A stretch of 32,000 bases of DNA from Gloeothece verrucosa PCC 7822 (GCF_000147335.1 NC_014534.1:124773-156772); one strand, 5' to 3'; shown: positions 6,699-31,690, numbered from the stretch's first letter. Numbers and translations are program-made. The notes: a model not told the origin generated them from the letters alone.

Positions 6699-7538
6699 AT
6701 GACAAATATTATTGATGAATTTCTCAACTTGCCTAATTTTAATCAAGCGTGGTTTAAGGTAGCCGATAATAAAGGTTGTGCAGGGATTGATGGAGAAACC
6801 ATAGAAAAATTTGCTCTAAATTTAGATAATAATCTAACTTTCTTACTCAATTCTGTAGCTAATAGTAATTATATTCCTCAGCCGCTTCAACAAATCTTAA
6901 TTCCTAAAACTCAAGAAAAATGGCGAGAGTTAAGAATTCCCACTGTGCGGGATAGAATTGTTCAACAAGCATTATTAAATGTTCTCTATCCCGTAATGGA
7001 AAAACGTTTTTCTGATGCGAGTTTTGCTTATCGTCCTAATCGTTCTTATCTTGATGCCGTCAAAAGAGCCGCTTATTGGCGAGATTTGGGTTATCAGTGG
7101 GTATTGGATGCGGATATTGTTGAGTATTTTGATAATATTTCTCATCCTATCTTGTTAAAAGAAGTCAGAAAAACTATTGACAATTCAGGAATATTGTGCT
7201 TAATAAAAGCTTGGATTTCGGCAGTAATTTCAACCGATAAAGGAATTATTTTTCCAGAGAAAGGAATCCCTCAAGGTGCGGTTATTTCTCCGATGTTAGC
7301 TAATATTTATCTCGATGAGTTTGACCATCATTTTACTGAATCTGATTTAAAATTAGTGCGCTATGCCGATGATTTTTTATTGTTATCTAAGACTGAAGAT
7401 GCAATAATGAGCGGCTATGCTCAAGTTGTCCAGTTACTTCATTTATTAGGACTAGAGTTACATCAAGAAAAGACCCAAAGGGAGCGTGTCACTTTCGCCA
7501 AAGTGACACGCTCCCATAACACCTTCCTTTATAAGTGA
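6699..7538 (+). pseudogene. group-II-intron-like reverse transcriptase, 3'-truncated
   Basis: RT motifs 0-6 are present: NKGCAGIDGETIEKF, RELRIPTVRDRIVQQALL, FAYRPNRSYLDAV, VLDADIVEYFDNISH, GIPQGAVISPMLANIYL, VRYADDFLLL, GLELHQEKTQ. Homology stops near 7478, where a 36-bp palindrome begins. There is no motif 7, thumb/X or En domain, and no intron RNA domains flank it. Confidence 0.75.
7480..7515. repeat. perfect 16-bp-arm palindrome at the RT truncation point
   Basis: GGGAGCGTGTCACTTT-CGCC-AAAGTGACACGCTCCC. GGGAGCGT recurs at 7592-7599, next to a second hairpin CCCTCACG-TCC-CGTGAGGG (7576-7594). Confidence 0.6.
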
Positions 7539-18446: not shown

Positions 18447-19721
18447 TTAAAACTCATAGTTATATCCATCTTTTTTTTGAATAGCTGTGCAAAATTTATA
18501 GGTAATTCCTGTTGTTCTGCCTTGATGGGATGCTATGTCGAAGCGGCCCGAAGCTCGACATAAAACTCGACCTAAATAAACACCAACTTTTTTTCCTTTT
18601 GTAACTACTGCTTTTACTTGAGCTCCAGTTTGAAATCCTTTGTAAAATTTGTTTCTAGACCGATGTCGAATAGGAAAACCGTATTTATTGATTCCGCACA
18701 TCTGTCTATTTCCGTGTCCTGTCGCTTTAATTAACAATGGTTGCCTTGTTAATAGTTTTAAGCTTTCAAGATTTCCGACACATCCCGCATCTATAAAATG
18801 TCTTTTTTCTAGATTTAATCTACATCTGTTATATTTAGTTCTACCTCCTGTTCCTGTTTCAATTGATAATCCTGTTTCTTTCAGCTTGTTAAATAATGCC
18901 CAACGAGTTGTGTTAACAGCAGCGACATTCTTAAGGGATTGCTTAGATTGTTTTAGAATCTTTTCTAGTAAACTAGGTTGGTTAGATAAGAAATCTTTAA
19001 TATCTTGATTCCCTTTCAATTGATTACAAATTCTACAAGAAATAGTTAAATTTGAACATCTGTCTGATCCTCCTTTTGATTTTGCTAGAATATGTTCAAC
19101 TTCTAACGGTACATCTTTAATACCACAGTAAACGCATCGTCTCCCCCATTTTTCAAGTAAATATTCTCGAATCTCATATCCAAAAAGTTCTCCTTGTTGG
19201 TATTCTTTACCTGATATTTCGGGGTTATCTAAAGCTTGAGTATCAAATTTAACAAGTTCTACCGAAATATTAGTAACATGAACAAATTTGCAAATACGTT
19301 TTACCCAGGTCATGGTCGTTTCTACACGATGTCGGAGACTGGGAGGAAGCCAACCTTTAAGTCGAGTACGATTTAGAAATCGCGCTTGCCGATATCGGGT
19401 TTTTCGGTTTCTACGGCTACGACGAATTTGTCTTCGAGTTAACAAATTATCTTTAATCTGTTGTCCTCTGTGAATTAATTCTGCTCCCCAAATAAGCTTG
19501 TCTTGTTGAACTAATGCAATCCCAGTCGTCTTGCTTCCAGGGTCTAGCTTTAGTTTGATAGTTTCTGTGGGTTTTTGGCATTCTTTTTTCAAAATTATAG
19601 TAAAAGGATAACGCCTTAAAACCGCAGCTTTGCCCTGCTTGAGAAGTTTTCTAGCTACTGATGGATGACAGGGACTAAGAGGGTTTTTCTTCGCATCTAG
19701 AACAAATACAAAATTTGACAT
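18447..19721 (-). CDS. iscB: IscB (OMEGA RNA-guided nuclease: PLMP, split RuvC, bridge helix, HNH)
   Basis: PLMP-type N-terminus (KKNPLSPCHPSVARKLLKQGKAAV), RuvC-I (KLDPGSKTTGIAL), Arg-rich bridge (RRQIRRSRRNRKTRYR), HNH (CVYCG...LEVEHILAKSKGGSDRCSNLTISCRICNQLKGN), RuvC-II/III (AAVNTTRW, KRHFIDAGCVG). The 424-aa ORF is intact with an AAGGAGAG SD. Confidence 0.9.
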   Translation of the reverse strand: MSNFVFVLDAKKNPLSPCHPSVARKLLKQGKAAVLRRYPFTIILKKECQKPTETIKLKLDPGSKTTGIALVQQDKLIWGAELIHRGQQIKDNLLTRRQIRRSRRNRKTRYRQARFLNRTRLKGWLPPSLRHRVETTMTWVKRICKFVHVTNISVELVKFDTQALDNPEISGKEYQQGELFGYEIREYLLEKWGRRCVYCGIKDVPLEVEHILAKSKGGSDRCSNLTISCRICNQLKGNQDIKDFLSNQPSLLEKILKQSKQSLKNVAAVNTTRWALFNKLKETGLSIETGTGGRTKYNRCRLNLEKRHFIDAGCVGNLESLKLLTRQPLLIKATGHGNRQMCGINKYGFPIRHRSRNKFYKGFQTGAQVKAVVTKGKKVGVYLGRVLCRASGRFDIASHQGRTTGITYKFCTAIQKKDGYNYEF

Positions 19722-19990
19722 TTCTGTCTCTCCTTTCGGGTAAAGTTCGCTTCGCCAATGTTTTTAAGGCTTGTTGGGTTAACAACACTGTCTTACCCCT
19801 CGTAAAACTGTTTAATTGTTAACAATAGAGCTACAAACTAGCAACGTATTTGTAGGTATTATGACCTGAAAAACGTAGTCATTTAAGACTTAGGCTGGTC
19901 AACTAACTGAAACTGGGGGCATGGACGCGCAGCGAGGCGTAGCCTAGCCCCGCAATTTCAATGCGGGGTGCTGACAACATAACTGCGAAA
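19722..19990 (-). ncRNA. putative IscB omega-RNA (scaffold plus 5' guide region)
   Basis: A roughly 270-bp non-coding stretch immediately 5' of iscB on the same strand, which is where omega-RNAs are encoded. It contains several hairpins on that strand (CCCCGCATTGAAATTGCGGGG, CTGCTTTCGCAG, GTTAACA...TGTTAAC). The boundaries are guesses. Confidence 0.5.
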
Positions 19991-20312: not shown

Positions 20313-20627
20313 GGTTTTAATTTTAAGCTATTGGTCAAAAAAAAAGCGCAATCCTTGAACTTCTTCCCTTAATTGCGCGATTCTACATCATGAGGTGCAA
20401 TAATTGGGGAAACATTAATGAAAAGATGTACATGGTCGGCATAATTTCTAGGGCTATAATATTCCAATCTTTTTCAAGACAAATATTCCAAATAATCTTC
20501 CTTAACCTTTTTATACATCTCCCACTAAAACTTTTTTTCGACGTTTGGAAATCCAAACTAAGTGGTAATTAACCAAAAATACTGTGTGACTTTTTGTTCG
20601 ATATTGTTGAGTCATTTGTCACAAATT

Positions 20628-22136
20628 ATGCTAGACTTAATTGTAGTTAATAGTATAACAACTAAAATAAAGGGGTTAAAATTGCTGCTAGGCTACGTCT
20701 ATAAGTTACGTCCCAATCTAGAACAATCAGCCAAAATAGATAGCTGGTTAGATAAGCTTCGCGCAACTTATAACTGGAGTCTAGCTGACAGAATCAATAC
20801 TTACCAACAAAGGTTTATACAGGGGGAATATTGCGATTTACGAACTCGCTCTGTAGCTTGTCCTTTAACCTGTTGTGTACTTAACAACAGCGCAACCGGA
20901 GAACCCTGGAGGAAAAACGGTGAGAAGAGAACGGCCAAAGAAATCCAAATCACTGCCTTGCCTCAACTGAAAAAAGCTAGACCCTGGTACAGGGAAATTG
21001 ATTCAACAGTTTTACAACAAAACTTAGAACGTTTAAATAAAGCTTATGAGAACTTCTTTGCTGGCCGAGGCTTTCCTAAGTTTAAAAACCGTAGTAATTT
21101 TAAATCCTTCACTTATGCTACTGGAGTCCAACTCAAAGGTAATAAAATCTATCTTCCCAAATTAGGATGGATGCGATATTACAATTCTCGTCCAATCCCT
21201 GACGGATTTAAAGTTAAATCGGTAACTGTTAGAAAAAAAGCCGATGGGTATTATGTGAGTATTAGGATTGAAAATAGTTCTATACCGTCTTTTCCTATCT
21301 TACCAATAGATGAGGTTAAAACTGTAATAGGAGTTGATGCCGGAGTGACCAAGCTACTGCATTGTTCCGATAAATCAGTGATAGAAAATCCTCGATTTGG
21401 TACTAACCCAAAAACTAAAAGGCAATTAAAAATCCGCCAAAGAAGATTAAGTCGTTGTAAGAAAGGCTCTAAAAATAGTAAAAAAAAGGCCACTCAACTA
21501 GCTAAATTACATCATAAAATTAAACAGAAAAGAGAGGCATACGCATGGAAAGTAGCTCATAAGATAGTTAAAAAAGCCGACTGTATTGTAGTAGAAGACC
21601 TGAACATACAGGGTTTATTAAAAAGATGCAAACCAATTAAATGTGAACAAACCGGACGATTTCTGCCCAATGATCAAAGTGCTAAAAAAGCACTCCATCG
21701 TTCTATCATAGATGCGTCCTGGCATTCTTTGTTTCAAAAGAGTGAGTATCTAGCTGCGAAGTTAGGAAAAGTTTTCTTAAAAGTTGACCCTAAAAAGACA
21801 AGTCAAACTTGTCCAAAATGCGGTTATGCTGACAAAGAAAATCGAAATAAAGAAAAATTTGTTTGCCTTGACTGCGGTCATTTTAGTGACTCAGATTGGA
21901 ACGCATCTATTAATCTAAAAAACCGAGCTATATCTCAGTTTAATCTAAAAATAAAACAGCCCAGAAAGGTACGACAGGACTTGTCGGAACCCAAGCAACT
22001 TAGTTTGTTTGAAACGCCCTCCCCTGAATTAACAGAGGTTCAAAGGAGACAACATTCTGCTAGAAATAGCAAACGGGATGTGCCGGGGAACCCGCCTACT
22101 CAATTGAGTTTATGGGATATTCAGGACTTGGCTTAG
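20628..22136 (+). CDS. tnpB: TnpB (IS200/IS605 OrfB, IS1341-type stand-alone), apparently intact
   Basis: GYVYKLRPNLEQSAKIDSWLDKLRATYNW N-terminus, RuvC-I IGVDAGVTKL, RuvC-II IVVEDLNIQGL, zinc finger CPKCGY...CLDCGH, RuvC-III DSDWNASINL. The ATG at 20628 is preferred to the track start at 20562. No tnpA adjacent. Confidence 0.85.
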   Translation: MLDLIVVNSITTKIKGLKLLLGYVYKLRPNLEQSAKIDSWLDKLRATYNWSLADRINTYQQRFIQGEYCDLRTRSVACPLTCCVLNNSATGEPWRKNGEKRTAKEIQITALPQLKKARPWYREIDSTVLQQNLERLNKAYENFFAGRGFPKFKNRSNFKSFTYATGVQLKGNKIYLPKLGWMRYYNSRPIPDGFKVKSVTVRKKADGYYVSIRIENSSIPSFPILPIDEVKTVIGVDAGVTKLLHCSDKSVIENPRFGTNPKTKRQLKIRQRRLSRCKKGSKNSKKKATQLAKLHHKIKQKREAYAWKVAHKIVKKADCIVVEDLNIQGLLKRCKPIKCEQTGRFLPNDQSAKKALHRSIIDASWHSLFQKSEYLAAKLGKVFLKVDPKKTSQTCPKCGYADKENRNKEKFVCLDCGHFSDSDWNASINLKNRAISQFNLKIKQPRKVRQDLSEPKQLSLFETPSPELTEVQRRQHSARNSKRDVPGNPPTQLSLWDIQDLA

Positions 22137-22176
22137 TTCTGAAGAATCACCCCAATTCAATTGGGGTGAGTGTCAA
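22000..22176 (+). ncRNA. putative TnpB omega/reRNA scaffold and IS right end
   Basis: By analogy with TnpB elements, whose guide RNA overlaps the 3' end of tnpB and ends at the right end. There is a strong hairpin CACCCCAATT-C-AATTGGGGTG at 22148-22168. The extent is not determinable by eye. Confidence 0.35.
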
Positions 22177-22412
22177 TTAAAACTCATCTTGACAAAAGAT
22201 TTCTTTCTCGCTAATCAATTCCTCTTCTTGAAACCAACAGATATCTCTAGTACCGTTAATCCATTTTAATCCATAAAGCCAGTAGGGGGCTTCAGATAAA
22301 TATTTTTGACTTTTTGACTTTTCCTCAACTAATATTAATCCATAAACTTGATAAAAATCGAGTTCTTCCTCTAATTCTTGGGAAGATTTTCCCTCGAATT
22401 CCTGATATTTTT
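22177..22412 (-). pseudogene. 3' part of a small gene apparently interrupted by ISL3
   Basis: Track ORF 22177..22494. Its first roughly 27 codons are IS-derived. The native part reads KYQEFEGKSSQELEEELDFYQVYGL... Confidence 0.4.
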
Positions 22413-23725
22413 GGTTCTTTAGATTTAAGTATGCTAAAATAATAAAAACAATAGCAAAAATAACAAGCCTAAACTTTAATGCCCTCTCCAGCACAACTAA
22501 AATTGATTCAAAATTTTCTCAACCTCCCCAATATTAAAGTTATAGATTATACAAGACAAGAAAATGTAGGAATGATTATTCAAGTTTTAGCTAATCATAA
22601 AGCTGCTATTTGCCCGCGATGTAAGACAAAAAGTGAAAAATTACATCAAAATCATTCATTTTTAGTCAGAGATTTACCTTTTAGTAATCAGGAAGTTTAT
22701 TTAAAAGTTACTCGAAGACAATTTAAATGCCAAAAATGCCAAAAACCTTTTAGTGAAGAGATTGATTTTATTAAAACAAGAAGAAGTTATACTAAACGTT
22801 TAGCCGCTCAAATTGTTGAGCAAGTATTAAATAGTAATATAAAAACGGTGGCAGAGCAAAATAATTTGAGTCAAGATATTGTAGAAAGAATGCTAAAAGA
22901 TATAGCCAGCGAAAAGCTTAAAGAAAAACCGAAAAATCTCAAAAAACTAGGAATAGATGAAATAGCTCTAGTAAAAGGGCATGGCAATTACTGTGCTGTT
23001 TTAATAGATTTGGAACAAGGTAAATTAATAGGGATGCTGCCTTCAAGAAAACAAGAAGATTTAAAACAATATTTAAAAAAATGGGGAAAAGAAATTCTTG
23101 AAGAGATAGAAGCAGTCAGTATAGATTTATGGAAATCTTATAAAACTTTAATTCAAGAATTGATGCCACAAGCTGAAATTATTGCTGACCGTTTTCATGT
23201 TATGAAAGCTATTAATACAGAATTAGATATGAAAAGAAAAACAATAAAGAAAAAAGCTTATACTCAAAAAAACAAATCTGAAAAAATTTTAGATGCCTTA
23301 AGTAAAAGTAAATATGCTTTGTTGAAAAATGAAAAAGACTTAACAGAAATTCAAAAAGAAAAACTTAAAAAAGTAAAGCAAGAAATTCCTATTTTAGGAA
23401 AAATGCACGAAATCAAAGAAGAATTTCGAGAAATTTTGGACAAGAATTATGATTGGTTAACAGGATTAGATAACTTAAGCGAGTGGCTATTAGCGGCTTC
23501 AACTTTATTTCCTAATAGTTCTAGGACAATTATTAGATGGTTTTCCGAAATCATGGGGTATTTTGAAAGTCGTATTACACAAGGTGTTGTAGAGGGAATT
23601 AATAATAAGCTTAAGTTGATTAAGCGGTCTGGCTATGGGTTCAAAAATTTTGAAAATTTTAAATTAAGATGTTTATTAAATTGGGCTATTACTTGTTAAC
23701 TTAGCATACTTAAATCTGAAGAACC
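22413..23725 (+). mobile_element. ISL3-family insertion sequence (1313 bp)
   Basis: 25-bp TIRs GGTTCTTTAGATTTAAGTATGCTAA (22413-22437) and TTAGCATACTTAAATCTGAAGAACC (23701-23725) bracket a single transposase ORF. Confidence 0.8.
22479..23699 (+). CDS. ISL3-family transposase
   Basis: N-terminal zinc-ribbon (CPRCKTKSEKLH...CQKCQKPF), GIDEIALVKGHGNYCAVLIDLEQGKLIGMLPSR, IADRFHVMK, and C-terminal VEGINNKLKLIKRSGYGFKNFENFKLRCLL, which is the classic ISL3/DDE_Tnp_ISL3 pattern. Confidence 0.85.
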   Translation: MPSPAQLKLIQNFLNLPNIKVIDYTRQENVGMIIQVLANHKAAICPRCKTKSEKLHQNHSFLVRDLPFSNQEVYLKVTRRQFKCQKCQKPFSEEIDFIKTRRSYTKRLAAQIVEQVLNSNIKTVAEQNNLSQDIVERMLKDIASEKLKEKPKNLKKLGIDEIALVKGHGNYCAVLIDLEQGKLIGMLPSRKQEDLKQYLKKWGKEILEEIEAVSIDLWKSYKTLIQELMPQAEIIADRFHVMKAINTELDMKRKTIKKKAYTQKNKSEKILDALSKSKYALLKNEKDLTEIQKEKLKKVKQEIPILGKMHEIKEEFREILDKNYDWLTGLDNLSEWLLAASTLFPNSSRTIIRWFSEIMGYFESRITQGVVEGINNKLKLIKRSGYGFKNFENFKLRCLLNWAITC

Positions 23726-25858: not shown

Positions 25859-25904
25859 ATGGCTAAAGTCGTTTCGATTTTTAATCAAAGTGGCGGGGTA
25901 GCCA
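25859..25904 (+). CDS. parA: ParA-type partition ATPase, exon 1 (15 codons plus 1 nt)
   Basis: ATGGCTAAAGTCGTTTCGATTTTTAATCAAAGTGGCGGGGTAGCCA encodes MAKVVSIFNQSGGVA, the start of a deviant Walker A box. It ends exactly where the intron GTGCG begins. Confidence 0.75.
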
Positions 25905-28378
25905 GTGCGATTCGTTCTCTCTAAACCTTGGAAAACAAAAGTTTCAGCCGTCTGAGGCTCCAAATCCAAGGGGGACGAGAGGCAAGGTAAAACGGAACAA
26001 CTAACCGAACCTTGACAACTTAATTCTCGATGTAGGGCGAGAAAGGTCAAACCACTAGCAGGAACGACCATTCAATTCCCTACCCTCTAGGTGATAGAGG
26101 ACAGCAATATCCCCAGAAGGTGACATGACAAACCACAATCTGACGCGGGATGTAAAGCGGGTCAAGCCTGAAAATCGGTAAGGTACTCCCGCAAGCTAGA
26201 TGGGTATGACTAGCGCAAGCAAACCTATGTTTGAATCTTCGTAACCGCCAACTTGCCTACCCGATTTCACGGGCAAGAGTCAAAAGACACAGCCGTTAGT
26301 AGAGGTTATTTGGCTATAACCTCTAATCACCCAACAAAGGCTCGGAGAATAGTAGGAGTCTAACCCCATCGCCAAACGAGAATTAGGAACGAAGTAACCC
26401 GTTAAGTATCTCTTAGAAAGGTCGATTTTCTAAGTAGTCAGTCAGGCGCATGGACTTAACGGGAAGGATTGTTTCAAAAGCCAACGCCTAGAGTAACGTC
26501 TAGGATAAGCTGACAGAAACACTGTTATGTGGAAGATAGAAACTCTAGTAAGAGACTAATGTCATGGACTCAGCTAACAAACTGAAGTATGAATGGGAAA
26601 CGATCCCTTGGCGCAAGCTAGAGGTACAAGTTTTCAAACTCCAAAAACGTATCTATCGAGCCGGTCAAAGTGGAAATGTCGTACTTGTCCGCAAGTTACA
26701 AAGGCTTCTGATGAAATCACTAGCAGCCAAACTCTTAGCAGTTCGTCGGGTAACACAAGATAACAGAGGAAAACGTACTGCGGGGATAGACGGAGTTAAA
26801 TCCCTCACCCCGAAACAACGGCTAGTTCTAGCCGAAAACCTCAACCTTTCCGACAAATCGACTCCAATCAGAAGGGTTTATATTCCTAAACCCAACAAAA
26901 AGGAGTTACGCCCACTCGGAATCCCGACTATGACAGAAAGAGCCAAACAAGCCCTAGTAAAACTAGCTCTAGAACCAGAATGGGAGGCTCGATTCGAGCC
27001 ACACTCATATGGTTTTAGACCCAGTAGGTCAGCCCATGACGCTATTGCTTACATAAAAATTGACATCCAAAGACTAGACAAATACGTTCTAGACGCGGAT
27101 ATCAGCAAATGCTTCGATAAAATCAACCACTCGGCACTTTTAACCAAGCTCAACACTTTCCCTAAAATGAGAAGACAAATAAAAGCTTGGCTAAAAGCAG
27201 GAATTATGGATGGGAATAAACTCTTCCCAAGCGAAGAGGGTACACCACAAGGAGGGGTGATCTCACCGCTACTAGCTAACATAGCTTTACACGGATTAGA
27301 AGAATACCTCACCAGTCACGTACCAAAAACCGCGTATATCAACAAAAAAGTAACCAATTGGAAACTAACGGTTGTTAGATATGCAGACGACTTCCTCATC
27401 CTCCATAGAGACCTAAATGAATTACTAAGAATCAAGGCTCTAGCCGAAAAATGGCTTTCAAATATGGGATTGGAACTCAACCCCAACAAAACCCAAATTG
27501 TACACACCTTTAACTCACATGAAGGAAAACAAGCGGGGTTTAACTTCCTCGGCTTCCACATTAGACACTACCCTGCGGGGATAAGAGACCGCAGATATAA
27601 ATCTGGTGGATGTAACCAAGGAGGACACCGTTGGACACAAATAGTTCCCTATGTAGTCCTAATAAAGCCAAGTGCCGAAGCAATCAAGCAACATAAGCGA
27701 AAACTAAGTCAAGTCATAGATGGATTGAAGACAGCCCCACAATCTCGACTAATCAGGGAACTAAACCCAATTATTAGAGGATGGGCAAATTACTACAGTT
27801 CAGTCAACTCAAAAGAAACTTTCTCCGATATTGACCACTGGCTATGGATAAAACTTAGAAGATGGTGTTTACGAAGACACCCCATGAAACCTGACAAATG
27901 GGTCTACAACAAATACTGGCACGTTGATGAACGACATAAAGGTAAGAAATGGGACTTTAACGATGGGGAACTATCCCTAACAGAACATCGCCAAACTCCC
28001 ATTAACAGACACATCAACGTGAAAGGAGACAGAAGCCCCTATGACGGAGATTGGATATATTGGAGTACCCGACTAGGGAAATACCCCAATATAAGAAGCC
28101 CAATAACAAAACTACTGAAGACCCAAAAAGGGAAATGTAGTAAATGCCAACTGTACTTCAGTCTCGAAGATATCCTAGAAATTCATCATATAGATGAGAA
28201 CAGGAATAACAACAGACTAACCAATCTCACCGTTTTACATGGACACTGCCACGATAATATACACCGATGACGAGGTACTCATATCAAGAGCCACCTAGCA
28301 GAGGAGCCGTGTGAAAAGAAATTTTCATGCACGGTTCTGAAGCCGAGTCAAAGAGGCGACTTTTTGGCTTAGGTTAAC
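25905..28378 (+). mobile_element. group II intron (2474 nt) with an RT/maturase/HNH ORF in domain IV
   Basis: 5' GTGCGA at 25905. Domain V GAGCCGTGTG...CATGCACGGTTC at 28304-28337, then domain VI, with the 3' end ...GGTTAAC at 28378. An EBS1-like loop TTGGCT (26310-26315), closed by an 8-bp stem, is complementary to AGCCA|A across the exon junction. Removing the intron restores a continuous parA frame. Confidence 0.85.
26564..28270 (+). CDS. group II intron-encoded protein (reverse transcriptase, maturase X domain, DNA-binding/HNH endonuclease)
   Basis: RT motifs (RPLGIPTMTERAKQAL, YGFRPSRSAHDAI, VLDADISKCFDKINH, GTPQGGVISPLLANIAL, VRYADDFLILH). Maturase region (RGWANYYS). C-terminal HNH (CSKCQ...EIHHIDENRNNNRLTNLTVLHGHCHDNIH). 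Confidence 0.9.
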   Translation: MDSANKLKYEWETIPWRKLEVQVFKLQKRIYRAGQSGNVVLVRKLQRLLMKSLAAKLLAVRRVTQDNRGKRTAGIDGVKSLTPKQRLVLAENLNLSDKSTPIRRVYIPKPNKKELRPLGIPTMTERAKQALVKLALEPEWEARFEPHSYGFRPSRSAHDAIAYIKIDIQRLDKYVLDADISKCFDKINHSALLTKLNTFPKMRRQIKAWLKAGIMDGNKLFPSEEGTPQGGVISPLLANIALHGLEEYLTSHVPKTAYINKKVTNWKLTVVRYADDFLILHRDLNELLRIKALAEKWLSNMGLELNPNKTQIVHTFNSHEGKQAGFNFLGFHIRHYPAGIRDRRYKSGGCNQGGHRWTQIVPYVVLIKPSAEAIKQHKRKLSQVIDGLKTAPQSRLIRELNPIIRGWANYYSSVNSKETFSDIDHWLWIKLRRWCLRRHPMKPDKWVYNKYWHVDERHKGKKWDFNDGELSLTEHRQTPINRHINVKGDRSPYDGDWIYWSTRLGKYPNIRSPITKLLKTQKGKCSKCQLYFSLEDILEIHHIDENRNNNRLTNLTVLHGHCHDNIHR

Positions 28379-29085
28379 AAACAACCCTAGCACACAATCT
28401 CGGTTGGCATTTAGGGCAGAGACAGCGCGTGCTGTTAGTGGATTTAGACCCTCAGTCGTCCCTAACCTCATTTATGGGGTTAGTTCCTTCAAATCTAGAA
28501 AAAACGGTTTATCATTCTCTAGTGGAACAGGAACCGTTAACCATCCAAAAAAACATTCACGATACTGTTGATCTGGCCCCGGCCAATGTTGGGTTAAGCG
28601 CAGCCGAGATGCAATTAGTCCCTTTAGTAGCGCGGGAAATGCGCTTAAAGAACGCGATCTTAGCTGTTGCCGACGATTATGATTTTATCTTAATTGATTG
28701 TCCGCCCAGCTTGGGATTGCTATCTATTTTAGGTCTTGTCGCTTCAACTCATGTGCTTGTGCCAGTCCAAACTCAAGTAAAATCTTTTGAGGGGACAGAC
28801 CTCTTATTAAAAACCGTCGCGGATATCAAAAGCTTAGTGAACCGTTCTTTATCTTTTGCAGGGTTCATACCGACTTTGTATGATAAGCGCACTATCCATC
28901 AATATGAAGTTTATAAGGCAATCTCGACTCAATTAAGTCAACTTGCACCGGTTTATGAACCCATACCTCATACGATTGCTTTCCCGGATTCATCTCTAAA
29001 GCGGCTTCCCCTCGCTCTATATAAACCCAATCACCCCGCAGTTCATATTATTGAATCCATTGCTCAACAACTAGAACAGCTATGA
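28379..29085 (+). CDS. parA: ParA-type partition ATPase, exon 2
   Basis: After splicing the frame reads ...GGVA-K-TTLAHNLGWHLGQRQRVLLVDLDPQSS...ILIDCPPSLG..., giving Walker A, A' and B of ParA/Soj-type ATPases. The track ORF 28429..29085 is the in-frame tail. Confidence 0.8.
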
Positions 29086-29987
29086 ATTTACAACTAAACA
29101 ACGTTGCCCTATTTCTCAATCATTCTCCAGAAGTTGAGGAAACCTCCGTTCAGCCAGTTTCTTTGCCTATCGACGCGATCCAAACTCGACCGTCTCAACC
29201 TCGACGATATTTTTCCCCCCAGGCGCATCAAGAGTTGGTCGACTCTATTCGTCAGCACGGAATACTCCAACCTATTCTTGTTCGTCCACTAGATGGGGGG
29301 ACTTACGAGTTGGTTGCCGGTGAGCGGCGTTACCGAGCGGCTATTGATGCCGGGTTAACCAATATCCCTGTTTTGATCAAACAATTGAGTGACGGGGAAG
29401 CATCTGAATTAACTTTAATTGAAAATCTGCAAAGAGAAAATCTTAACCCGTTAGAAGAGGCTGAGGGAATTCTTGAACTTTTATCTATTGCATTAGAAAA
29501 ACCGATTTCTGATGTCCCTAAAATTCTATATCGAATGCAAAATGAAGCGGTTGGTAAAGTTACTCAAAACGTTTTAAGTAGTGAGGAAGCTAATAAGATA
29601 AAAGAAGTTTTTCGGAGGGTGGGAACGATTTCTTGGGAGTCGTTTATTCCCTCCCGACTCTCTTTATTATCATTACCTAATGATATTTTGGCGGCTTTAC
29701 GTGAAGGGAAGATTGAATATACAAAAGCTGTGGCCTTGGCGAAAATTAAAGATGATAACTCCAGAAGAGACTTTCTCTTAAGAGCAATAGAAGAGAAGTG
29801 GACGCTTTCTCAAATTAAGGAAAAAATTAAGTCGCTTTCAACTAAAGAAGAAGAAACAATCAACCCACAGCAACGAATTAAATCCTTTGCCGCCAAGCTG
29901 AAAAAATCTAAATCTTTAGCCGATCAAAAAGTTTGGAAAAAAATCGAAGGGTATCTGTCAAAAATTGAAAGTTTGATTGAAGATTGA
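29082..29987 (+). CDS. parB: ParB-type partition protein
   Basis: ParB/Srx box ILQPILVRPLDGGTYELVAGERRYRAA, then an HTH region. The ATGA start/stop overlaps parA. Confidence 0.85.
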   Translation: MNLQLNNVALFLNHSPEVEETSVQPVSLPIDAIQTRPSQPRRYFSPQAHQELVDSIRQHGILQPILVRPLDGGTYELVAGERRYRAAIDAGLTNIPVLIKQLSDGEASELTLIENLQRENLNPLEEAEGILELLSIALEKPISDVPKILYRMQNEAVGKVTQNVLSSEEANKIKEVFRRVGTISWESFIPSRLSLLSLPNDILAALREGKIEYTKAVALAKIKDDNSRRDFLLRAIEEKWTLSQIKEKIKSLSTKEEETINPQQRIKSFAAKLKKSKSLADQKVWKKIEGYLSKIESLIED

Positions 29988-30567: not shown

Positions 30568-31690
30568 TCAAATTATTTCACAAATTCCTTCTCGTTTATA
30601 GATAGGAATAACTTGGTTAACTGGAGCCGTTAAATATTTGGTTGGACAACCAGCATAAGGTTTTAAACTAAGGCGAGTTCCCTTATTTTGCATTCCGACT
30701 ACTGGTATTATGCGTCCCTGATATTTAACTAGATCATGCTGTTTATAAGGATAACGAAGCTTTTTGATGGCTCGTCTCCCCTTGCTAACTTTCTGCCCTC
30801 GATATTTTCTCAAGTTTTCTCCATTGTGGTTTTTGTTACGGGTTCTTCTACCGGAGAAAAGAATGCTTCCCGACTTGACTTGTCCGTCTCTCGTATCGAT
30901 ATACTTAGCATCATAGAACTGTTCTAATGACCGTTTATGATGCCGTATCTGTTCTAAGTTAAGGGGATTACATCGAGTTTGAGTTGTCCCTCCGGCTATG
31001 ACAAAAGCATCATTTTGATGAGACTTTTCTAGATTAAGTTCTCGTCTTTTAGCTTTAGTTATATAACCATAAGTATGAGAGTAATCTTTGACTAATGCGG
31101 CTAAAATCCGACCCGTTTTGTATAAACCTTGTAGGTAGAGCCAAGAACAAACGGCATAGATTATACTTTTAGTTAATGTGGGAAACTCTGTTAATCTCCA
31201 CCTAACAGTTGACATAAAAGTTTCTCCTCTAAATGATTTTAAACGAGGTTGCCATCTGTAAAGAAACTTTCCTTTTTTATGATTAGCCGGAGTATGGCAT
31301 TTACTACAGAGTGTGATTAAGTTACTCGGTCTATCGGTTCGGTCATCTTTCCAAAACCCTAAATGATGCACTTGTAAAATGGGCTGCTTAGATTTATTTT
31401 TACAGTTAGGATTCTGGCATCTGTGATTGTCCCTATGCAGGATATATTTTCTCAAGTTGTCAAATCCATACTGTTCTCCCTGTTGATAATCTTCGCCCTC
31501 AATCGAAGGATTTTTTATCTTTTTGATGTCGAAGTTAGCAACTTCAATGATGACCTCCTCAATGGGCAAAACTGATTTAATGAGGTTGATTAATCGATGG
31601 TGGCTATCCAGTTTATGACCAATTGAAGGGGCTAACCAACCCAAGCTTCTCCTCCCGTGCTTCCATTTAAAATTATTAAGGCGGGTTTAT
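30568..31690 (-). pseudogene. iscB: IscB-like gene lacking the N-terminal PLMP/RuvC-I/bridge region
   Basis: It aligns by eye to the intact IscB from GWLAPSIGHK (compare GWLPPSLRHR) onward: IEVANFD, QQGEQYGFDNLR, HNH (CQNPNC...HVHHLGFW...NLITLCSKCH), MSTVRW, KSHQNDAFVIAG. The open frame begins only after a stop near 31690, and there is no ATG (TTG at 31644). A right-end-type hairpin ATTGACCG-TGTGA-CGGTCAAT lies at 30526-30546. Confidence 0.7.

Follow-up and report, generated by a model that had tools for sequence, protein, structure and literature searches.

The parA locus and its interrupted reading frame

The window analysed here, a 32,000-nt stretch of Gloeothece verrucosa PCC 7822, lies on a replicon of 474 kb (C3) in a genome of seven contigs (7.84 Mb) with cyanobacterial relatives. 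It contains a parA reading frame that is split by a group II intron (Table 1), the insertion point falling after the first base of the codon (AAA) for the catalytic Lys16 in the Walker A motif, or P-loop. Joining the two exons in silico resulted in a single 250-codon ORF with one terminal stop, reading ..SGGVA-K-TT.. across the junction, so that exon 2 continues as K-T-T in the way the initial annotation had proposed. Among the in-frame shifts of the intron ends by up to ±4 nt, this register was the single one to keep both the GTGCG/AAC ends and an intact GxK-TT motif; the alternative registers lost one or the other.

Exon 2 is of the ParA type, with an AAA_31 match of 133 bits and matches to Soj/ParA structures (E 1e-23 to 1e-38) that begin just past the P-loop. 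Alone, it aligned to the AAA_31 and CbiA profiles from positions 16 and 13 onward, respectively, indicating that the start of the P-loop is absent from exon 2 and is supplied by exon 1. An intron-free plasmid ParA of Anabaena cylindrica begins with the same NQSGGVxK motif, which identifies exon 1 as a true ParA N-terminus. Intron-less relatives of parA, which the initial annotation had suggested looking for, were found in 142 public plasmid records. The adjoining parB gene matches ParB_N and HTH_ParB and scores above the cut-off of TIGR00180.

The window ParA retains the catalytic Lys16 and has Ser in place of the signature lysine of KGGxGK. Ser is also found at this position in the intron-free A. 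cylindrica homolog, and Ala in the ParA proteins of contigs C5 and C6. Since intron-free homologs share it, the Ser/Ala replacement is a trait of this ParA subfamily, unrelated to the intron. The replacement was also noted at L297:1453-1560.

Promoter and terminator scans were near chance. Without splicing, the parA frame stops after 21 codons, and the ORF that starts at an internal GTG (28429-29085) lacks a P-loop. As judged from the reading frames, an active ParA would be obtained here only through precise splicing, in agreement with the proposal that its expression depends on intron removal.

Several other features were noted in the window. At 18447-19975 (minus strand), a HEARO RNA (160 bits) lies directly upstream of a 424-aa IscB-type RRXRR-HNH gene, and a second, N-terminally short IscB-type ORF occupies 30568-31644. 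A TnpB gene is followed by an ISL3 transposase (20562-23699, plus strand). A separate, shorter reverse transcriptase (RT) ORF (6699-7538, plus strand) is ~37% identical to the intron-encoded protein (IEP) over the RT core.

Table 1. Features of the interrupted parA locus (window coordinates).
Feature	Position	Strand	Basis
parA exon 1 (15 codons and first base of Lys16)	25859..25904	+	joined ORF; A. cylindrica N-terminus NQSGGVxK
IBS2a (T at -14; third base of codon before Gly-Gly)	25891	+	covaries with 26243 in 90 outgroup introns; PMC8643678
IBS2 (GGCGG, P-loop Gly-Gly codons)	25892..25896	+	covariation
IBS1 (TAGCCA)	25899..25904	+	covariation
Group IIB intron, 2474 nt	25905..28378	+	RF00029, ends; identical copy C6:16988-14515
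EBS2a (A)	26243	+	covariation
EBS2 (CCGCC)	26245..26249	+	covariation, clade alignment
ID3 hairpin with delta (26310) and EBS1 (26311-26316)	26300..26325	+	fold z -3.3; column-by-column covariation with exon -1 to -6
EBS3 (U), partner of exon 2 base +1 (A)	26350	+	covariation
IEP: RVT_N, RT (YADD), maturase X, C-terminal zinc-binding/HNH region	26564..28270	+	Pfam, TIGR04416, motifs, 6ME0 chain C
Domain V (34 nt, AGC triad, GAAA loop)	28304..28337	+	RF00029, fold
Domain VI with bulged A28371	28341..28375	+	fold
parA exon 2 (completes Lys16; 235 codons to stop)	28379..29085	+	joined ORF, profiles, structure matches
parB, start overlaps parA stop (ATGA)	29082..29987	+	ParB_N, HTH_ParB, TIGR00180

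Intron structure and intron-encoded protein

The intron starts with GTGCGA and finishes with TTAAC, in accordance with the GUGYG/AY rule. Domains V and VI matched Rfam RF00029 with 52.1 bits (gathering threshold 40) and folded with a z of -5.65 against shuffled sequences. With its AGC triad, domain V is canonical, as had been described; in domain VI the bulged branch-point A lies eight nt before the intron end. The Rfam search gave no match for domains I-IV.

The IEP (568 aa; first base 659 nt past the intron 5' end) passes TIGR04416 with 336 bits (cut-off 300). Its C-terminal HNH motifs (CxxC, EIHH and HGHCH) are intact, with Pfam HNH_3 scoring below its cut-off. Judged by these motifs, the intron is a candidate endonuclease-dependent mobile element. 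The closest solved IEP structure is 6ME0 chain C (E 8.5e-96), a CL1-type IEP; note that the IEP tree is without labelled CL1/CL2 references.

An identical intron in a second parA gene

Contig C6 (43.6 kb) holds a 100% identical copy of the intron in the same Lys codon of another parA gene, which shares 55% protein and 57% DNA identity with the interrupted parA of C3. The C6 copy shows both the same intron boundaries in a different parA and is therefore an independent check of the junctions. Together with the joined ORF, the RF00029 match and the IEP, it bears out the initial placement of a group II intron within the Walker A Lys codon, including its coordinates. The presence of an identical intron in two 55%-identical parA genes on different replicons points to recent retrohoming.

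A third parA of the same family, on C5, is intron-free, and its product is 77.5% identical to the C6 ParA. On C6, the interrupted parA-parB is the sole pair found. C3 carries two additional, distant parA-parB pairs, and the window parA is thus not the one partition gene of its replicon, as had been assumed.

Two side observations concern other mobile DNA in this genome. A 3.7-kb segment is 100% identical between C6:428-4175 and C3:349194-352941, representing another recent exchange. Eight more distantly related group II IEP loci (48-70%) were detected, seven on C1 and one at C3:273161-275049; none of the seven among these eight that had a callable 5' end was at a P-loop site.

An intron lineage at P-loop lysine codons

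In a protein search, IEPs of 61-88% identity stood out as a group from a background of ~55%. These form a single clade on a long stem, with a support of 1.0 (FastTree) and 100 (SH-aLRT). Clade members were chosen by IEP alone and their flanks were read afterwards. In 13 of the 14 IEP clusters with readable flanks, the intron divides the P-loop Lys codon between its first and second bases, within the host motif [K/S/A]-G-G-x-[G/A]-K-[S/T]; this count leaves out six clade IEP clusters (P0002, P0005-7, P0010 and P0077). The corresponding number for outgroup loci with a callable 5' end was 0 of 127.

ParA-family support, by Pfam or by close identity to a Pfam-supported host, was obtained for 11 of the 13 hosts, the remaining two (L282 and L288) being assigned by motif alone, with a short exon 2 that has no Pfam match. 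Complete open frames are retained by 11 of the 13. The hosts fall into at least five subfamilies with 16-30% identity between subfamilies, and the IEPs are 62-85% identical. The nearest mapped relative of the window intron has an IEP of 85% identity in a host of just 21% identity, showing that intron and host trees are discordant.

The lone exception is cluster P0011 (L133-L142), whose site is a non-coding look-alike that still carries GG-T-GG in register with IBS2. This site resembles a motif flanking a tnpB gene at C1:2137733-2137758 of the window genome, and the P0011 EBS1 remains a better match to Val-Ala-Lys codons than to the site it now occupies.

The lineage is rare among the genomes covered. 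Matches were obtained in two of the 400 other genomes searched within the order, and one of the two was an outgroup intron. A metagenome scan returned one clade member, a viral scan returned none, and a plasmid collection contained no full-length relative. DNA searches gave a few matches in other families and none in sets of 144 and 236 genomes; an extra Mastigocoleus-like copy and a truncated copy recovered by DNA search were at the P-loop site. A search for the junction pattern (Gly-Gly-Val-Gly/Ala codons followed by GTGCGA) matched 18 of 401 and 31 of 401 genomes (controls, 4 and 3), with just 2 of 33 regions outside the window genome holding this intron. We did not take this count as evidence of a large family, as most of the other regions either encode GGVxSAI or overlap with HIP1, a cyanobacterial octamer.

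Individual loci showed further features. At L302 (G1102:C15:27700-29510, minus strand) the intron is cut off after ~720 nt, and the deletion extends into the first part of parA exon 2, so that the gene is dead. L282:1017-3999 is a GEKGGVGKS host with a stop and a frame change 73 codons into exon 2; the L288 host looks related. At L129:384-5378, the interrupted ParA-type gene has a psbA-type gene directly upstream of it and is followed by a 148-aa ORF.

In conclusion, assignment of the intron to a cyanobacterial lineage found nearly always at the P-loop Lys codon of distant partition-type ATPase genes is well supported at the sequence level. The clade members at this codon and the C6 copy answer the question of where related introns are inserted, and strongly support the proposal of retrohoming into a conserved ParA sequence. 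Moreover, plasmid parA is itself mobile DNA, so that the insertion site does not contradict the usual distribution of group II introns.

The initial annotation had also viewed the placement of the intron as a device coupling plasmid segregation to splicing. Such a domesticated regulatory intron, kept by the host so that the supply of ParA tracks splicing conditions, would fit the splicing requirement of the window locus and the finding that the interrupted gene is the sole parA found on C6; splicing has been reported to modulate some bacterial host genes (PMC12584367). However, the C3 and C6 copies are identical and hence recent, and the IEP retains its RT and HNH motifs. Uninterrupted relatives are present in the 142 plasmid records, C3 has two more parA-parB pairs, intron and host trees disagree, and the lineage is rare, with decayed copies such as L302 and L282. 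We therefore consider host regulation highly unlikely.

Intron-exon pairing at the target site

To avoid picking pairings by eye, we built a domain I alignment from 90 outgroup introns whose targets vary and sought, for each exon position, the complementary intron column. The top covarying columns corresponded to EBS1 (exon positions -1 to -6), EBS2 (-9 to -13), 26243 (-14) and 26350 (+1). In the window intron, EBS1 (UGGCUA) pairs with IBS1 (TAGCCA) at 6/6 positions. The EBS1/IBS1 pairing of the initial annotation thus holds, with the loop placed one nucleotide further on than the proposed 26310-26315, and the EBS2/IBS2 pairing that it had left to be confirmed is mapped. Position 26243 is the site of the described EBS2a interaction with IBS2a at -14 (PMC8643678).

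For position +1, EBS3 was the top column (0.61 paired versus 0.26 expected), compared to 0.48 versus 0.39 for the delta column. A delta pairing across the junction, as proposed initially, was consequently rejected: delta does not track +1, whereas the column of EBS3 does. A delta-prime partner was sought and not found. Tracking of the +1 base by EBS3 and not by delta assigns the intron to group IIB. An EBS2a-IBS2a pair of the IIB1/IIB2 type is present (A26243 with T25891), EBS2a being two nt before EBS2 with A26244 next. By these sequence criteria the intron is a chloroplast-like group IIB intron, the class being taken no finer than CL1/CL2 and IIB1/IIB2.

Opposite the Gly-Gly codons, EBS2 is almost invariant in the clade, as CC(G/U)CC, and EBS3 is always U, facing the second A of the Lys codon. 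EBS1 varies with the target: cognate EBS1-IBS1 combinations were Watson-Crick paired at 56/78 positions versus 45/78 when permuted (p 0.0004, with kin not independent). EBS2a is A in the window intron alone, matching the T at -14 of both its targets, and U in the 13 other aligned clade members, where its partner is the A or G that ends the signature Lys codon. For exon bases at codon positions one and two, Watson-Crick pairs were found in 13/13 members at -9, -10, -12 and -13, in 12/13 at -1, and in 11/13 at -3 and -4. Mismatches were concentrated at -2, -5 and -11, all third codon positions, where Watson-Crick pairing was found in 6/13, 7/13 and 3/12, respectively.

In the window genome, the occupied sites match at 13/13 (C3) and 11/13 positions (C6; mismatches at -11 and -5), so that one intron sequence resides in a perfect and in an imperfect site. 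The nine empty ParA-like sites reach at most 9/13, and no uninterrupted site reaches 11. The empty C5 site matches at 9/13, its four mismatches all being at third codon positions; the other ParA-like sites match at 7-9.

Five clade members have an EBS1 pairing of just 3-4/6 (3/6 in L243, L238 and L129), and five have U.G at EBS2a, a pair that is strictly Watson-Crick in EcI5 (PMC8643678). Some of the third-position mismatch may hence reflect drift of the host after insertion rather than tolerance, and the poor pairing of older members may have this origin. Such drift is also part of the possibility that the intron entered a ParA ancestor once and was inherited vertically with widespread loss, with no active re-invasion across subfamilies. 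The poor fit of L243, L238 and L129 to their present exons is in line with this scenario, as is the presence of the intron in all three of the near-identical hosts L011, L242 and L243. However, while these hosts are 83-92% identical, their IEPs are 71-75% identical and do not group together. Moreover, IEPs across the clade are far closer than the hosts, and the identical intron in the C3 and C6 genes largely refutes vertical inheritance, leaving it scarcely credible.

Proposed mechanism of homing

Taken together, the data make it probable that the window intron is a mobile, chloroplast-like group IIB intron and a selfish element that homes to a protein motif, its cyanobacterial lineage having specialised in the P-loop codons found in ParA/MinD-superfamily genes. 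By the known IIB mechanism, the intron would be co-transcribed with parA, and maturase-aided lariat splicing would restore the Lys codon. The lariat RNP would then reverse-splice into double-stranded DNA and prime with the HNH cut. According to the pairing table, the invariant GG-n-GG that encodes Gly-Gly would be read by EBS2, and the last base of the codon before it by EBS2a. The Gly/Ala and Lys codons would be the targets of EBS1 and EBS3. A few EBS changes could retune the intron to a new ParA subfamily, and with third-position mismatches partly tolerated, one intron would reach genes that share little beyond the P-loop motif. The advantages of this site for the intron would be its recurrence on many plasmids, the limitation of host escape to synonymous changes, and the destruction of the catalytic lysine by any imprecise loss. 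The dependence of ParA on splicing is, on this mechanism, a cost to the host and not a function.

The lineage could be real and yet splice poorly or not at all, with parA knocked down, the loss tolerated through other partition systems, and hosts often becoming pseudogenes. Complementing partition functions could come from the two further pairs on C3 and from the C5 ParA, Ll.LtrB is known to reduce its host mRNA (PMC6003770), and both the premature stop in the L282 host and the deletion at L302, which took part of exon 2 together with the 3' end of the intron, are of the kind expected. We nevertheless regard this outcome as unlikely for the window intron, given that its splicing elements are all intact with 13/13 pairing, that full open frames are kept by 11 of 13 hosts, and that recent spread needs a spliced lariat.

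A more far-reaching version of selfish homing can be likened to the manner in which Ll.LtrB acts on relaxase mRNA (PMC6003770). By this analogy, the excised intron might base-pair with and reopen parA mRNAs, its own and those of incoming plasmids, and convert newcomers by homing, as a broad-range weapon against, or regulator of, partition ATPases. We consider this improbable; if true, the lineage would shape plasmid stability and incompatibility in cyanobacteria.

Comparison with known intron lineages

[quoted passage not shown] Similar to the ParA lineage, they are mobile introns in a plasmid function gene that move between homologs and adapt to new sites (PMC5072309, PMC6003770). In contrast, they are near-identical introns in a transfer gene (relaxase), whereas the ParA lineage is IIB, resides in a maintenance gene and has hosts spanning 16-30% identity. 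B.th.I3, M.a.I5, UA.I3 and P.l.I2 home into the RYADD codons of RTs (Tourasse and Kolsto 2008, PMC2504315). They, too, are a related group II set (58-67% identical) aimed at catalytic-motif codons of distant homologs, and the set has also jumped into another RT family. These introns are without endonuclease and target other retroelements, whereas the ParA lineage is chloroplast-like, keeps its HNH motifs and targets a cellular/plasmid ATPase motif whose function would depend on splicing.

The IIB1 start/stop-codon lineage (Avi.groEL, EcKTE56.groEL), with retrohoming demonstrated for one member, is likewise monophyletic and holds a fixed position in protein-coding genes (PMC12584367). Unlike the window intron, it sits at gene ends and has a large 5' insertion, of which the window intron shows none. 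The IIB1 intron T.el4h (Th.e.I3; PDB 6ME0) has the closest solved IEP and is a class-level relative only. T.el4h and EcI5 share the same EBS1/EBS2/EBS2a/EBS3 scheme, with IBS2a at -14; we found no report in the literature of ParA targeting by either. Thus, the ParA lineage differs in host and site from the RYADD, relaxase and groEL lineages, and the resemblance is one of analogy, not membership.

Inteins and group I introns in conserved motifs similarly occupy constrained sites with lethal imprecise loss, while group II introns overall showed no conserved-site preference (p 0.49; Swithers 2009, PMC2814812). The ParA lineage is an exception to that rule. Reviews note that cyanobacterial CL introns are sometimes found in housekeeping genes, making one interrupted gene ordinary. 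A ParA-targeting intron lineage or a codon-matched EBS map was not found in the literature, though single members may be listed in older compilations or the curated intron database. Accordingly, the homing strategy is known, and the ParA-wide lineage with its codon-matched EBS map is the new part.

Significance

Because gene callers truncate or miss such interrupted parA genes, the annotation is corrected here. The lineage represents a natural, well-mapped retroelement that would recognise a protein motif via its codons and move among genes with just 16-30% identity. One genome offers a ready experiment, with a perfect site on C3, an occupied site with two mismatches on C6 and an empty site with four mismatches on C5, all mismatches being at third codon positions. 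This series would make testable the mismatch tolerance of IIB homing and the possibility that hosts gain immunity through synonymous codon choice.
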